IMG/VR virus record: IMGVR_UViG_2740892449_000004
DNA length: 64,000 bases
Origin: a virus
Taxonomy: Duplodnaviria > Heunggongvirae > Uroviricota > Caudoviricetes
Strand: one strand, 5' to 3'
Shown: in pieces, positions 4,067 through 62,828 of the stretch
How the letters are laid out: each line of letters starts with the position of its first letter
Numbering within the stretch: the stretch's first letter is position 1
Notes under the pieces: generated by a model
What the model saw: the letters and a program-made list of their open reading frames with translations, nothing else
Database searches by the model: none
What the model was told of the DNA's origin: nothing
Translations under genes and position numbers: made by a program

Positions 4067-4151
4067 TTATGCTTCCTTTCGTAAAAACTCTTTTTGACGC
4101 GAGGGTAACGAAAGTCACATGTCAAAAGGCCCGGAACGGGCAAGCAATCAA

Positions 4152-34732: not shown

Positions 34733-34803
34733 CTGACGACTCCAAACAAATACCCATTGAAGGGCGATGGCTGAATGGTACCGAAAACACGACATAAAAA
34801 ACA

Positions 34804-34820
34804 ATATTTATTAGAGCAAT
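34804..34820 (-). promoter_or_regulatory. C1 operator upstream of uhr-hrdC-dmt
   Basis: reverse complement ATTGCTCTAATAAATAT, 16/17. Confidence 0.5.
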
Positions 34821-34847
34821 CATGCAATAGTTAACACCATATAGACC

Positions 34848-34868
34848 ACAAGTAACCTAAGTTAAAAT
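34848..34868 (+). promoter_or_regulatory. Putative late promoter
   Basis: ACAAGTAAC-N6-TAAAAT, 33 nt upstream of the GTG start at 34901. Confidence 0.45.
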
Positions 34869-34900: not shown

Positions 34901-35185
34901 GTGGCAAGTATTGCAACAAAAGACAGCATTTGTTCGGGGCACGGAGGATTCCCATCCAGGCCTCCTGTAGAGAGTGAACCACTACTTAAAGTCAACGGAG
35001 TCGAAGTGTTAGTTGATGGTAAGCAATATGCACAGCATACCGATGGAAACAGTACGCACGGTGGGCAAGCTATATCAACCAGGGCATGGTTTACCGTCAA
35101 TGGTAAAGGGATCGTATGCGTTGGTGACCCTGTTTCATGCGGATCTACCGTAGCGTCCGGAGACGGCCTGGTTCAGGTAAGTTAG
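34901..35185 (+). CDS. PAAR-like spike-tip protein (GTG start)
   Basis: 94-aa ORF with PAAR-like Gly/Cys pattern: DSICSGHGG...VNGVEV...HGG...VNGKGIVCVGDPVSCG. Confidence 0.5.
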   Translation: MASIATKDSICSGHGGFPSRPPVESEPLLKVNGVEVLVDGKQYAQHTDGNSTHGGQAISTRAWFTVNGKGIVCVGDPVSCGSTVASGDGLVQVS

Positions 35186-35193
35186 GAGATATC

Positions 35194-35982
35194 ATGCTGG
35201 AAAAAGACTACCAGTTATCCGCATATAAAAAATTGGCCGCCGCCGGTGGGATGAAAACACCTGGTGCCATAACATCGGCACGAAACAGTGCTAACACAGC
35301 AAAACTGCTTGCAGAAGAATTGACCGGATTAATTCTGGATACAATTGTCTATCCCGACACTATTACCAGCTATGTTTCAACGATCAGAACAACCACAACC
35401 GGCTTAACGAACATTGGAGAACTGGCAACTAAGCACGCGGACCTGTTGGCTGGTTATGCTGATCTGTCAATGCTCCTTCAACTCGATATTGGTTGGGATG
35501 TTTACTGTCGTGCTAATGAGCGAGAAGTATCAGAACTGCCGATCTCTATTGCCATTGGTGATGTGACTATTACTAAATCGCTTGAGGACGCTGTAAACGC
35601 GCTTAATACATCAAGTTTAGTCGCTGCTATGGGGGAGATTAACCAGACCCTTAACACTGGCTCAGGAAGCTCGTCAGGCTCTGGTTCAGGCGGCGGCACT
35701 GCCACTCCCCCACCAGCACTAACAGAAGAGCAAATTGAATCTCTGAAAGTAGCAACTGAACAGTTTGGGGTTGTTTTCAACCAGACAACAGCGCCCACAA
35801 CTGCGTTACAACAGCAGTATGAACGAGCGAATGAAAGCGCCAACGTAGCCATAACTGCTTATAACCATGCTATCGGTACCGCGCTTGCGGAAGCATCAGC
35901 AAATAAGGTCAGCACAGCCAGCGCAGTTGCCGCTTTGGTTCCTGATTCTGTTCTTGATGAATTAAACAAAGCGGCACAGTAA
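35194..35982 (+). CDS. Hypothetical protein with Gly/Ser-rich linker
   Basis: about 262 codons from MLEKDYQ behind AGGAGA; central SGSSSGSGSGGG linker. Confidence 0.5.
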   Translation: MLEKDYQLSAYKKLAAAGGMKTPGAITSARNSANTAKLLAEELTGLILDTIVYPDTITSYVSTIRTTTTGLTNIGELATKHADLLAGYADLSMLLQLDIGWDVYCRANEREVSELPISIAIGDVTITKSLEDAVNALNTSSLVAAMGEINQTLNTGSGSSSGSGSGGGTATPPPALTEEQIESLKVATEQFGVVFNQTTAPTTALQQQYERANESANVAITAYNHAIGTALAEASANKVSTASAVAALVPDSVLDELNKAAQ

Positions 35983-36021
35983 CAAAGGACTTCATTGATA
36001 ATTTTTCTTCAGGAGGAAGAC

Positions 36022-36444
36022 ATGTCATTCTTTTCTACGTTAAAAACAGCTTTGTCTTTGAAGGAGAAACTTGCTGCTACTGGTGTTCTTGTTCTGATTT
36101 GCGCACTTGTTGGTGCTGGGTTTGCATGGGAACGTCATCAGCTAAAGCAAGCCATGGAGAAAATTGGCAGTCTTGATCAGGCTGTTAAGGAACGTGATAA
36201 GTCAATAATGGATCTTAACCAGACCATTGAGACGATGAACAAAGCAGAGCAACATTTTCACAGCCAGGAAGTGAAAAATGAATCAGAACAAGCCAAATAT
36301 GCTGACAGGCAAATGGAACGAAAAGCTGAAGTTCAGAAACAACTGGTTGCGGCGGGTAATGTTCGCCAGCGCATTCCTGCTGACACTCAGCGGTTGCTCC
36401 GGGAGTCGATCAGCGAATTTAACGCCGACGCCGACAAAGGTTAA
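36022..36444 (+). CDS. i-spanin-like protein (N-terminal TM helix plus periplasmic coiled coil)
   Basis: 141 codons from MSFFSTLK behind AGGAGGA; TM helix ATGVLVLICALVGAGFAW then charged coiled-coil region. Confidence 0.5.
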   Translation: MSFFSTLKTALSLKEKLAATGVLVLICALVGAGFAWERHQLKQAMEKIGSLDQAVKERDKSIMDLNQTIETMNKAEQHFHSQEVKNESEQAKYADRQMERKAEVQKQLVAAGNVRQRIPADTQRLLRESISEFNADADKG

Positions 36445-36610
36445 CCACCCTGCCCCCAAAAGTGCATTTATGTGCAGAATGCCAGAGTTTAGCAGTGAAT
36501 ATTTTGATGATCTGCCAGCGTATATCCTCGATACAGAAACGATGCTGAAGGGGATTAACAGGAAGAATCGCAACGTTAATGATTACAACCGTGCTATCAG
36601 CGGTAACTAA
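36278..36610 (+). CDS. o-spanin-like lipoprotein overlapping the i-spanin gene in another frame
   Basis: Lipobox LLTLSGC followed by Pro-rich mature region (TPTPTKVNHPAP); starts inside the 36022..36444 gene and extends beyond it; exact start uncertain. Confidence 0.45.
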   Translation: MNQNKPNMLTGKWNEKLKFRNNWLRRVMFASAFLLTLSGCSGSRSANLTPTPTKVNHPAPKSAFMCRMPEFSSEYFDDLPAYILDTETMLKGINRKNRNVNDYNRAISGN

Positions 36611-36621
36611 AAGGAAAAACT

Positions 36622-36981
36622 ATGTCCGATATGGAAATTGAAAAAGAGATTCTGGCCAAAGGCAAAACAGCACCACGCCTGACTCCTGATCACATCGAGA
36701 GTGTGATTGCCGAAGAGCATTATTTCACAGCTTTTGACGGCATTCGCGCTGCGCACGAAGGCGTTCGTGAGGTGCTGTCTGTTCATCCCTCTACGCGTAG
36801 CCTGACCATCTGTGTCTTGGTGCTGTGCAATGGATTCATTGTTACCGGGGAAAGCGCCTGTGCCAGCCCTGAAAATTTCGACGCGGAGATTGGCCGTAAG
36901 GTGGCCCGTAAGAACGCCATTGAGAAAATCTGGCCGCTGGAAGGTTATCTGCTGAAGCAAAAGCTCAGCGAGCAGATTTAA
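36622..36981 (+). CDS. Hypothetical protein
   Basis: 119-aa ORF. Confidence 0.5.
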   Translation: MSDMEIEKEILAKGKTAPRLTPDHIESVIAEEHYFTAFDGIRAAHEGVREVLSVHPSTRSLTICVLVLCNGFIVTGESACASPENFDAEIGRKVARKNAIEKIWPLEGYLLKQKLSEQI

Positions 36982-37051
36982 TCAACTGTAGAAATCGTAA
37001 TATCAACACTCATGACTTTACTTTGGCAGGAAGCCACTAAGGACAAACAAC

Positions 37052-37453
37052 ATGTTTGCGGTTAAACAAGAAATAAACAACGCTACTTCTTTGTTCGAAA
37101 TTGAGAGTATTACCGTTGGATATCCTGGGTCAGATCAATTTAAACAGGCGTTCGAGATTGCTGAAGAACTGGGTATCAAAACGCCTGATGCGATTGAATA
37201 TATCCCTGTTGCGTACGAAGATGAGGAGATGACAAAGGCAATCGGGGAAGAGCAAACTTTGAGTACAGAGCGTAAGGATGTACAGCGGGATGACTGTATC
37301 GCCGTGATTTGCTCTGGGGTTGCTTCTGAAATGTTCCCCGACCTCCCTGCCATAGGAGGTGTTGGTTATCAATTCCTCTACAAAGGTGATACGTTACGCA
37401 TCTATACAAGTAGTTTGTTGATCGAAGAAGTAGGTACGGAAAACGACAACTAA
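37052..37453 (+). CDS. Hypothetical acidic protein
   Basis: 133-aa ORF. Confidence 0.5.
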   Translation: MFAVKQEINNATSLFEIESITVGYPGSDQFKQAFEIAEELGIKTPDAIEYIPVAYEDEEMTKAIGEEQTLSTERKDVQRDDCIAVICSGVASEMFPDLPAIGGVGYQFLYKGDTLRIYTSSLLIEEVGTENDN

Positions 37454-37619
37454 TTCGCTTCAACTCTTCACAGAAATCGGTCCTCAGTGGCCGGTTTTTC
37501 ACTTATCCACATTATCCACTGGGTAGATCCAATAATCAGGTCCATACAGATCCCAATTAGATCCATATAGATCCCTGATCGTTGCAGGCCGCGCCACGTC
37601 TGGCTTAGAAGTGTATCGC

Positions 37620-37779: not shown

Positions 37780-38640
37780 ATGAATCAATCATTTATCTCC
37801 GATATTCTTTACGCAGACATTGAAAGTAAGGCAAAAGAACTAACAGTTAATTCAAACAACACTGTGCAGCCTGTAGCGTTGATGCGCTTGGGGGTATTCG
37901 TGCCGAAGCCATCAAAGAGCAAAGGAGAAAGTAAAGAGATTGATGCCACCAAAGCGTTTTCCCAGCTGGAGATAGCTAAAGCCGAGGGTTACGATGATAT
38001 TAAAATCACCGGTCCTCGACTCGATATGGATACTGATTTCAAAACGTGGATCGGTGTCATCTACGCGTTCAGCAAATACGGCTTGTCCTCAAACACCATC
38101 CAGTTATCGTTTCAGGAATTCGCTAAAGCCTGTGGTTTCCCCTCAAAACGTCTGGATGCGAAACTGCGTTTAACCATTCATGAATCACTTGGACGCTTGC
38201 GTAACAAGGGTATCGCTTTTAAGCGCGGAAAAGATGCTAAAGGCGGCTATCAGACTGGTCTGCTGAAGGTCGGGCGTTTTGATGCTGACCTTGATCTGAT
38301 AGAGCTGGAGGCTGATTCGAAGTTGTGGGAGCTGTTCCAGCTTGATTATCGCGTTCTGTTGCAACACCACGCCTTGCGTGCCCTTCCGAAGAAAGAAGCT
38401 GCACAAGCCATTTACACTTTCATCGAAAGCCTTCCGCAGAACCCGTTGCCGCTATCGTTCGCGCGAATCCGTGAGCGCCTGGCTTTGCAGTCAGCTGTTG
38501 GCGAGCAAAACCGTATCATTAAGAAAGCGATAGAACAGCTTAAAACAATCGGCTATCTCGACTGTTCAATTGAGAAGAAAGGCCGGGAAAGTTTTGTAAT
38601 CGTCCATTCTCGCAATCCAAAGCTGAAACTCCCCGAATAA
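37780..38640 (+). CDS. repA: RepA plasmid replication initiator
   Basis: 286-aa ORF flanked by iteron arrays; sequence matches recalled P1 RepA. Confidence 0.9.
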   Translation: MNQSFISDILYADIESKAKELTVNSNNTVQPVALMRLGVFVPKPSKSKGESKEIDATKAFSQLEIAKAEGYDDIKITGPRLDMDTDFKTWIGVIYAFSKYGLSSNTIQLSFQEFAKACGFPSKRLDAKLRLTIHESLGRLRNKGIAFKRGKDAKGGYQTGLLKVGRFDADLDLIELEADSKLWELFQLDYRVLLQHHALRALPKKEAAQAIYTFIESLPQNPLPLSFARIRERLALQSAVGEQNRIIKKAIEQLKTIGYLDCSIEKKGRESFVIVHSRNPKLKLPE

Positions 38641-41564: not shown

Positions 41565-41585
41565 ACAAGTGACTTTCAATAAAAT
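41565..41585 (+). promoter_or_regulatory. Putative late promoter
   Basis: ACAAGTGAC-N6-TAAAAT upstream of the large structural gene. Confidence 0.5.
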
Positions 41586-52163: not shown

Positions 52164-52514
52164 ATGTCATCTGAACATGTTCGTAAAGGTGTAACAAATG
52201 CGAAATTCAATGAAGAGCAATCTAATATTCTCTTTATTGAAATAGGAATTCTGTCAATACTGATAGGTTTAATGTCTAAATCATGGTGGGCCTTTGGCGG
52301 TTCTTTTCTTGGACTGATTTTTAGTTTAAGAATAAAATTTCTAGCAATACCATTGATGATTGTATTTAGCTTAGTATGGGGAGCTATTGGCTATAGTATT
52401 GGTACTTTGTTTGAATCAACAGCAGCAAGTATTGTTTTGGGGGTAATTGCTTTCCTGAGTGGTTTGGGTACTCATTTTGCTGCCGTGCAATGGGCAAATG
52501 ATATTGCAGAATAA
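52164..52514 (+). CDS. Small integral membrane protein (3 TM helices), AT-rich cassette gene 1
   Basis: 116-aa ORF with GGAGA ribosome-binding site; three hydrophobic helices; AT-rich codon usage unlike neighbours. Confidence 0.6.
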   Translation: MSSEHVRKGVTNAKFNEEQSNILFIEIGILSILIGLMSKSWWAFGGSFLGLIFSLRIKFLAIPLMIVFSLVWGAIGYSIGTLFESTAASIVLGVIAFLSGLGTHFAAVQWANDIAE

Positions 52515-52536
52515 TTACAGATAAGAAGCGAAAAGA

Positions 52537-52959
52537 ATGAATATGAGATGGTTTTTATTATTTGTATCGTTAGTTTCAGCAGGAACATTTGCAAAAATTG
52601 ATCCTCTACAATGGAATGTAATTGAAGAGAGAGGGGGGAGAGAATATACAATCCATAATCATAATGGTGATAAGATAAGTTTTTTATGTGATATGGGATT
52701 CATGTATGGTTCACCAGATAGTGCAGGTAGTTTAGGCTTGTTGCTAAGTTCGTCGAATAATAAAAAAGAGTATAATGCTGACAAGAATAAAATAGTATTA
52801 ACTATAGATGGTGAGCAATATCCTTTTAGCAATCTTGGATCAATGGTTGGAGATTCTTGGTGGTATGCCTTTTGGCAAGATGCAGCAGATTCAAATGCTA
52901 ATATGATTGATGCTTATGTTGATAATGAAAAAATTGCTACATTCCCTCTTTCTGGCTAA
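52537..52959 (+). CDS. Secreted/periplasmic protein, AT-rich cassette gene 2
   Basis: 140-aa ORF with signal peptide MNMRWFLLFVSLVSAGTFA. Confidence 0.6.
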   Translation: MNMRWFLLFVSLVSAGTFAKIDPLQWNVIEERGGREYTIHNHNGDKISFLCDMGFMYGSPDSAGSLGLLLSSSNNKKEYNADKNKIVLTIDGEQYPFSNLGSMVGDSWWYAFWQDAADSNANMIDAYVDNEKIATFPLSG

Positions 52960-62807: not shown

Positions 62808-62828
62808 ACAAGTTACTTATCTTACAAT
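62808..62828 (+). promoter_or_regulatory. Putative late promoter
   Basis: ACAAGTTAC-N6-TACAAT, 31 nt upstream of ATG at 62859. Confidence 0.45.

Follow-up and report, generated by a model that had tools for sequence, protein, structure and literature searches.

To our knowledge, the embedded Rz/Rz1 pair of phage lambda is the only spanin system that has been dissected mechanistically. The overlapped spanin genes of phage P1 were reportedly first predicted by Summer et al. (2007), and Table S1 of Kongari et al. (2018), in which they represent the “P1” family of overlapped two-component spanins, lists P1 gp064 (PpfA) and Mlp as an “ovl” OIS/OOS pair; the P7 pair is also listed as overlapped. 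Bednarek et al. (2022; PMC9025707), citing Summer et al. (2007), describe the P1 spanin operon as unlinked to the other lysis genes. Here we analyze an overlapping gene pair at positions 36022 to 36610 of a 64,000-nucleotide stretch of the IMG/VR virus record IMGVR_UViG_2740892449_000004 (the whole stretch is referred to below as the window), which a first-pass annotation had described as spanin-like. Judged by similarity and gene order, the pair is ppfA/mlp, the already catalogued overlapped spanin genes of phage P1, in the usual P1 position. We consider it very probable that it serves as the two-component spanin of a P1-like phage-plasmid, with PpfA as the inner-membrane subunit (i-spanin) and Mlp as the outer-membrane subunit (o-spanin). 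What the analysis shows directly is how the genes are built, that they match those of P1, that they are related to the P2 spanin genes, and that selection is purifying in the two reading frames.

Identity and setting of the gene pair

The window is a P1-like phage-plasmid and, by synteny, extends from about c1/pac, via the replicon, to gene R. The region of the pair is 98 to 99.6% identical to phages P1, P7, RCS47, and SJ46 and to other phage records, in which it is annotated as ppfA/mlp, as “Rz-like spanin” (the RefSeq label for P1 mlp), or as Rz/Rz1. PpfA is 99% identical to P1 PpfA, from which it differs by the substitution I45M, and Mlp is 97% identical to P1 Mlp (substitutions S7N, V32A, and M91K). 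In PLSDB, 656 plasmid records contain the same 589 bp, and one record (NZ_CP023961.1, Escherichia coli) is 100% identical. In addition, both genes rank within the top 21 for conservation over 77 P1-like phage-plasmids (PMC9603915).

As in P1, the pair is located between upfB and the oriR/repA/parAB replicon. The first-pass annotation had placed it beside a plasmid replicon, and a Rep3-type repA is indeed found 1.2 kb downstream (37780 to 38640).

Overlapped architecture of ppfA and mlp

The ppfA gene (36022 to 36444, plus strand) encodes a predicted i-spanin of 140 amino acids, in which an N-terminal transmembrane (TM) anchor is followed by a helical periplasmic domain. A Shine-Dalgarno sequence, AGGAGG, can be read at 36011 to 36016 (plus strand), with the ppfA ATG 5 nt after it, and Table S1 of Kongari et al. 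(2018) marks the identical ribosome-binding site for ppfA. The predicted TM segment, LAATGVLVLICALVGAGFA (36070 to 36126, plus strand; codons 17 to 35), is the top Kyte-Doolittle 19-mer, with a mean of 2.35, and the flank on its N-terminal side has a net charge of +2. This combination fits an N-in/C-out topology, in agreement with the earlier description of the product of 36022 to 36444 as a type II membrane protein. The AlphaFold2 model of PpfA, for which a 19-sequence alignment was used, consists of a helix at residues 13 to 110 (within which residues 17 to 35 fall), a break at residues 111 to 119, and a second helix at residues 120 to 137, with a mean predicted local distance difference test score (pLDDT) of 70 (about 70 to 80 in the helices). 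The modeled layout of TM-helix, linker, and helix is that expected of an i-spanin and supports the assignment.

The mlp gene (36278 to 36610, plus strand) is read in the +1 frame of ppfA and, as annotated, encodes a predicted o-spanin, an outer-membrane lipoprotein precursor of 110 amino acids. It overlaps ppfA by 167 nt as annotated (98 nt if translation starts at TTG 36347; see below) and runs 166 nt past the ppfA stop. Its lipobox, L-S-G-C, spans residues 37 to 40 (36386 to 36397, plus strand), with the codon for Cys40 at 36395 to 36397. The residue at position +2 is Ser, i.e., the Lol-avoidance Asp, an inner-membrane retention signal, is absent. The lipoprotein gene that had been reported to overlap the first gene in another frame, with lipobox LSGC, is therefore present as described, and so is the overlapped i-spanin/o-spanin architecture as a whole: the TM anchor, the lipobox, the start of the o-spanin gene inside the i-spanin gene, and the extension of the former past the end of the latter. 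The mature Mlp of 71 amino acids had also been called Pro-rich. It contains 6 Pro residues, 5 of which are within the first 31 residues; the concentration near the N terminus thus stands, whereas the overall enrichment (8.5%) is moderate, not strong. The Introduction of PMC9025707 swaps the labels, calling ppfA the o-spanin and mlp the i-spanin, but the TM anchor is in PpfA and the lipobox in Mlp, which shows the opposite.

In 507 of 528 spanin systems, Kongari et al. (2018) found that one subunit or the other has a periplasmic Cys, or more than one, with which homotypic disulfide links can form, and in their table the periplasmic Cys counts for the P1 pair are 0 and 1. The pair in the window conforms via Mlp: PpfA has no periplasmic Cys, and Cys66 of Mlp (in FMCRMPEF) is the sole mature Cys besides the lipidated one and is kept in all diverged lineages.

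Family relations of PpfA and Mlp

Mlp matches phrog_30284 at 3e-76 and phrog_456, the family of P2 LysC, at 1.3e-5, and LysC in turn matches phrog_30284. Direct comparison by blastp gives 37% identity between Mlp and LysC over 68 amino acids (E = 4e-8), and on this similarity Mlp is homologous to this o-spanin of P2. PpfA matches phrog_89 (“Rz-like spanin”) at 1.2e-25, and P2 LysB matches the same cluster at 5.8e-61; lambda Rz is in phrog_13, not phrog_89. Mlp and lambda Rz1 align by blastp with an E value of 0.006, but this alignment is confined to the signal peptide. No relatives of PpfA, Mlp, or UpfB were found among solved structures.

Several points weigh against a spanin function for this pair. 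That function has not been experimentally verified in P1 (PMC9025707), and a genome-wide CRISPR interference (CRISPRi) study (PMC10695390) scored both mlp (efficiency of plating, ~0.2) and ppfA (~1.3) as non-essential for P1 plaques, whereas lambda Rz was scored as essential in the same study. These scores fit the conditional phenotype of spanin mutants, yet they leave room for redundancy. At the level of curated families, PpfA reaches 19 bits against a cut-off of 92.75 for TIGR03495 (LysB), and Mlp, though a LysC homologue, falls outside the NCBIfam equivalog NF038368 because its score of 14.9 bits is below the cut-off of 27. No Pfam Rz or Rz1 match was obtained for either protein at an E value of ≤0.1. 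Direct comparison of PpfA with P2 LysB (blastp E = 57; about 1% probability in hhalign of the PpfA family) and with lambda Rz (blastp E = 0.26; hhalign probability, 1.6%) gave no significant similarity. Given the hhalign probabilities of about 1%, the i-spanin assignment rests on architecture and one broad PHROG cluster. Of the periplasmic coiled coil claimed for PpfA, a long helix is predicted by AlphaFold2, but hydrophobic occupancy of the a and d positions over residues 41 to 72 (0.88) was reached by 126 of 1,000 shuffles in a crude heptad test and is not significant. Finally, AlphaFold2 modeled Mlp with a confidence (pLDDT, 57) too low for fold searches to be based on it.

Purifying selection in both reading frames

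Salmonella, Cronobacter, and Klebsiella aerogenes have PpfA homologues that are ~60% identical, as do two metagenome-derived contigs. All five of these diverged relatives keep the gene order dmt-rdgC-uhr, PAAR gene-upfB-ppfA-...-repA, and all five lineages have an open +1 frame of 109 to 123 codons. The lipobox Cys is invariant among them, in the forms LSGC, LNGC, LSAC, and LNAC, and the Ser at +2 and the second Cys are likewise kept.

Selection was analyzed in a gapless DNA alignment of six sequences. In the part that belongs to ppfA only, variability per ppfA codon position is 0.41, 0.36, and 0.78, i.e., mostly at third positions, and the ratio of nonsynonymous to synonymous substitution rates (dN/dS) is 0.18 to 0.27 versus the ~60%-identical relatives. 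In the part that belongs to mlp only, variability per mlp codon position is 0.26, 0.20, and 0.73, and dN/dS is 0.08 to 0.12 in the mlp frame versus 1.2 to 2.4 in the two other frames. Within the overlap, variability collapses at all positions; only 10 of 32 ppfA third positions are variable there, compared with 85 of 108 upstream (Fisher's exact test, P = 1.7e-6). With a dN/dS of about 0.1 in its own frame, values above 1 in the others, and the drop in ppfA third-position variability where the genes overlap, mlp is a genuine constrained coding sequence, and both frames are under purifying selection.

In most P1-like assemblies (L008 to L011, L015, and many PLSDB plasmids), mlp is uncalled, shortened, or labeled “hypothetical protein,” and the Logan/ENA calls of the gene are stubs of 45 to 52 amino acids downstream of the ppfA stop. 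An annotation bias against overlapped o-spanin genes has been described previously (Kongari et al. 2018).

Separation from other lysis genes and proposed role

The first-pass annotation noted that no holin or endolysin gene adjoins the pair. Consistent with this, tblastn searches with P1 Lyz, LydA, LydD, and LydE gave no match with an E value of <0.3 in the 64-kb window. On the P1 map, lyz/lydD/lydE are found at 20.0 to 20.9 kb, lydB/lydA/lydC at 30.4 to 31.5 kb, and mlp/ppfA at 63.4 to 63.9 kb, so that the holin and endolysin, which the annotation had proposed to locate elsewhere, are in P1 at the lyz and lydA loci, 32 to 43 kb from mlp/ppfA. The lysis genes of P1 are spread over at least three operons, a scattering already described as peculiar to this phage (PMC9025707), and the window excludes both of the other lysis loci, which accounts for the missing holin and endolysin genes. 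An adjoining lysis cassette, which is usual but not obligatory for spanin genes, is thus lacking.

By analogy with lambda Rz/Rz1, we infer the localization of the two proteins, their complex formation, membrane fusion, and the timing of expression. PpfA would be inserted in the inner membrane via its N-terminal TM helix, N-in/C-out, with the long helical domain reaching into the periplasm. Mlp would be exported, lipidated at Cys40, and cut by signal peptidase II; with Ser as residue +2, it would be directed to the outer membrane by the Lol system. The periplasmic domains of PpfA and Mlp would then bind each other, giving periplasm-spanning complexes that are trapped in the peptidoglycan mesh. 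Once the holin LydA triggers and the signal-arrest-release (SAR) endolysin Lyz degrades the wall, these complexes would be freed, draw the inner membrane toward the outer one, and bring about their fusion, such that destruction of the outer membrane would be the last step of lysis.

Alternative explanations

PpfA and Mlp could be true spanin homologues and still be redundant or dispensable in P1, with the outer membrane disrupted in another way and the pair contributing little in most conditions. Such redundancy would agree with the CRISPRi scores of mlp and ppfA (PMC10695390), with the statement that spanins are dispensable for lysis in shaken laboratory cultures (Bednarek et al. 2022; PMC9025707), and with the unusual complexity of the P1 lysis system, which includes several holin-like proteins (PMC9025707). 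However, CRISPRi knock-down is partial, and shear or low levels of divalent cations mask spanin defects (PMC9025707). Strong purifying selection in both frames, with a dN/dS of 0.1 to 0.27 across lineages that are ~40% diverged, and the rank of these genes among the most conserved in P1-like phage-plasmids, along with their presence in hundreds of plasmid records, also argue against this reading, and we regard dispensability as unlikely. It is highly improbable that the pair instead forms an envelope module of the lysogen, with a role, e.g., in excluding superinfecting phages, in serum resistance, or in envelope functions tied to the plasmid, and expressed from sigma-70 promoters by the replicon. 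The P1 record predicts two such promoters, P1ppfA and P2ppfA, just before ppfA and has no late promoter annotated for this operon, and the pair adjoins oriR/repA/par with no lysis gene adjacent to it. In the window, though, P1ppfA and P2ppfA were not recovered in a simple sigma-70/terminator consensus scan, in which sites were no more frequent than in shuffled sequence. Furthermore, Mlp is homologous to LysC of the P2 lysis cassette, with the same architecture, and there were no matches to PADLOC defence families among the six operon and neighboring proteins. Late expression would also be suggested by the first gene of the probable operon, whose PAAR product is noted in the P1 record to resemble T4 gp5.4.

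That the +1-frame lipoprotein open reading frame (ORF) arose by chance and is untranslated, which would leave ppfA as the sole gene and which the first-pass annotation had named as one outcome that would overturn its proposal, has next to no probability. Gene callers do omit or shorten mlp in most assemblies, and the signal peptide, as annotated, is of unusual length and is missed by LipoP (Kongari et al. 2018). On evolutionary grounds, however, the question of translation is effectively answered by the low dN/dS in the mlp frame, by the concentration of variability at the mlp third codon position, and by the dual-coding constraint in the overlap; conservation of the lipobox Cys in all lineages and homology to P2 LysC point the same way. 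Spanin function of a translated ppfA/mlp pair remains the preferred explanation.

Start codon of mlp

A Shine-Dalgarno-like sequence, AGGAAG (36266 to 36271, plus strand), lies 6 nt before the annotated mlp ATG at 36278 and reads AGGAGG in relatives. The equivalent of ATG 36278, with AGGAGG or AGGAAG 6 to 9 nt before it, is present in seven of the seven lineages examined. From this start, the signal peptide has 39 residues. An alternative start, TTG at codon 24 (36347 to 36349, plus strand), would give the signal peptide MRRVMFASAFLLTLSG, followed by C; a canonical lipoprotein signal peptide of 16 residues would result, and the failure of LipoP would be explained. Codon 24 aligns with M1 of P2 LysC. 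At this position, TTG is found in the P1 clade, ATG is found in four diverged relatives, and AGG is found in the fifth lineage, where PpfA has Glu109. Codons 1 to 23 of mlp are under no constraint in the mlp frame (dN/dS, 2.3 to 5.3), and the third-position variability of ppfA in this part is 0.87. The annotated precursor of 110 amino acids may therefore be too long, with translation beginning at TTG 36347. As a settled start, however, TTG 36347 was downgraded, given the AGG codon in the fifth lineage and the upstream ATG with its Shine-Dalgarno sequence in all seven lineages. Both candidate starts lead to the same mature lipoprotein.

Upstream operon and candidate late promoter

Upstream of ppfA and tightly packed with it, upfC (34901 to 35185, plus strand) encodes a PAAR-type protein of 94 amino acids. 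It matches NF033420 (type VI secretion system [T6SS] PAAR) at 4.5e-9, which is under the curated cut-off, and a note in the P1 record describes the upfC product as similar to T4 gp5.4. Directly upstream of ppfA is upfB (P1 annotation; from 35137 or 35194 to 35982, plus strand), the product of which contains a Gly/Ser-rich linker, GSGSSSGSGSGGG. The start of upfB is more probably ATG 35194 than the annotated 35137: AGGAG is found 7 nt upstream of ATG 35194, and both the PHROG alignment and the relatives (258 to 260 amino acids) begin there. The run from upfC through upfB, ppfA, and mlp to the ORF after them is closely spaced and points away from the leftward dmt operon; upfC-upfB-ppfA-mlp probably form one operon. 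The pair is found next to oriR/repA since it ends this rightward operon, which abuts the replicon.

In the intergenic region between dmt and upfC, a conserved C1 operator, AATATTTATTAGAGCAAT (P1 Odmt/Op68), is followed about 45 bp to the right by a -10 hexamer, TAAAAT, which is likewise conserved (TACAAT in L008) and lacks a usable -35; both elements lie within 34803 to 34868. This hexamer is part of a weak candidate Lpa-type late promoter, AAGTAACCT-N4-TAAAAT (34850 to 34868, plus strand), 33 nt upstream of upfC. When it is compared with AAGT(G/T)A(C/T)TT-N4-TANNNT, a late-promoter consensus that we built from LP23, LPlyz, LPdar, and the gene R match given below, its -22 box shows two mismatches; the 4-nt spacing and the hexamer are conserved in relatives. 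The window contains 11 matches to this consensus with ≤2 mismatches versus 4.9 expected and 6 with ≤1 mismatch versus 1.1 expected, so that true late promoters stand out at the stricter limit; the candidate is not among the latter and is also unannotated in the P1 record. The matches include those at 4102 to 4120 (minus strand), at 22844 to 22862, at 41567 to 41585 (which is the annotated LP23), and at 62810 to 62828. The last of these fits the consensus with zero mismatches, lies 31 nt ahead of gene R, and is presumably the P1 tail-fibre late promoter, and the match at 4102 to 4120, by its map position and the ORF list, appears to lie just upstream of a pacA-sized ORF.

The spanin genes may form the last part of an unannotated late operon, dependent on Lpa and beginning at this degenerate promoter ahead of the PAAR gene upfC. 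If so, spanin synthesis would be coupled to that of virion-tip genes, not to the holin and endolysin. Taken together, an mlp start at TTG 36347 and a late operon ending with the spanin genes are conceivable but somewhat doubtful. Neither reading alters the identity of the pair.

Neighboring genes

Similarity to P1 ends directly after the mlp stop codon (region 36611 to 37500). Here, upfA of P1 is replaced by a gene of the PF13876 family (N4 gp49/Sf6 gp66; 36622 to 36981; E = 1.1e-33), followed by a phrog_1453 ORF at 37052 to 37453. This arrangement is shared with phage vB_EcoM-813R1 and with some of the diverged relatives. The repA-upfA interval has been described as a hypervariable region and insertion hotspot of P1-like phage-plasmids, with blaCTX-M-55 in JL22 (PMC9603915).

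Elsewhere in the window, the sim-like region at 52164 to 52959 has adjacent ORFs. One of them encodes a multi-TM membrane protein of 116 amino acids; the other encodes a product of 140 amino acids with a signal peptide that looks cleavable and no lipobox Cys. Kongari et al. (2018) note that the P7 gene Upf50.0 was initially taken for the Rz equivalent in error.

Significance and comparison with known spanins

The pair in the window is a known feature, already predicted, catalogued, and partly annotated, and the first-pass description of it is correct but ordinary, its sole shortcoming being that it did not identify the pair as that of P1. The relevance of the pair lies mainly in annotation quality: the lysis function is of a textbook type and the phage is among those studied most thoroughly, yet gene callers keep missing or shortening mlp in most P1-like phage-plasmid assemblies. 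With its predicted spanins, P1 is also a convenient case for the timing of a spanin operon that is unlinked from the holin and endolysin.

Compared with ppfA (gp064) and mlp (gp063) of P1 and P7, the genes in the window are the same pair, at 98.7% nucleotide identity and with shared position, +1 overlap, and lipobox. The P1 pair differs from that in the window by point substitutions only, although the downstream gene is upfA in P1 and the PF13876 gene here. P2 LysB/LysC, the prototype overlapped spanin, is arranged in the same way, in that lysC likewise begins inside lysB in the +1 frame and runs past its end. However, lysB and lysC directly follow the holin gene Y, the endolysin gene K, and lysA in one cassette, whereas ppfA and mlp of P1 are tens of kilobases from the holin and endolysin genes.

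In lambda Rz/Rz1, too, a type II inner-membrane protein, whose periplasmic part has two helical segments, is paired with a small Pro-containing outer-membrane lipoprotein that the same DNA encodes in the +1 frame. Rz1 lies entirely within Rz, whereas mlp continues beyond the ppfA stop, and there is no significant sequence similarity between the two systems. Rz has two periplasmic Cys residues, whereas PpfA has none. Mature Rz1 has 40 amino acids and is more Pro-rich, with PPPPP and PPP runs, than the 71-residue mature Mlp. The separated spanins PseT.3/PseT.2 of T4 resemble the pair in the distribution of Cys residues: the i-spanin is also without periplasmic Cys, and the o-spanin carries the cysteines (Kongari et al. 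2018). As compared by description, PseT.2 is, like Mlp, larger than Rz1 and has a predicted C-terminal helical structure. The T4 genes, however, do not overlap, and PseT.2 has two essential periplasmic Cys residues, compared with a single one in mature Mlp if the lipidated Cys is not counted.

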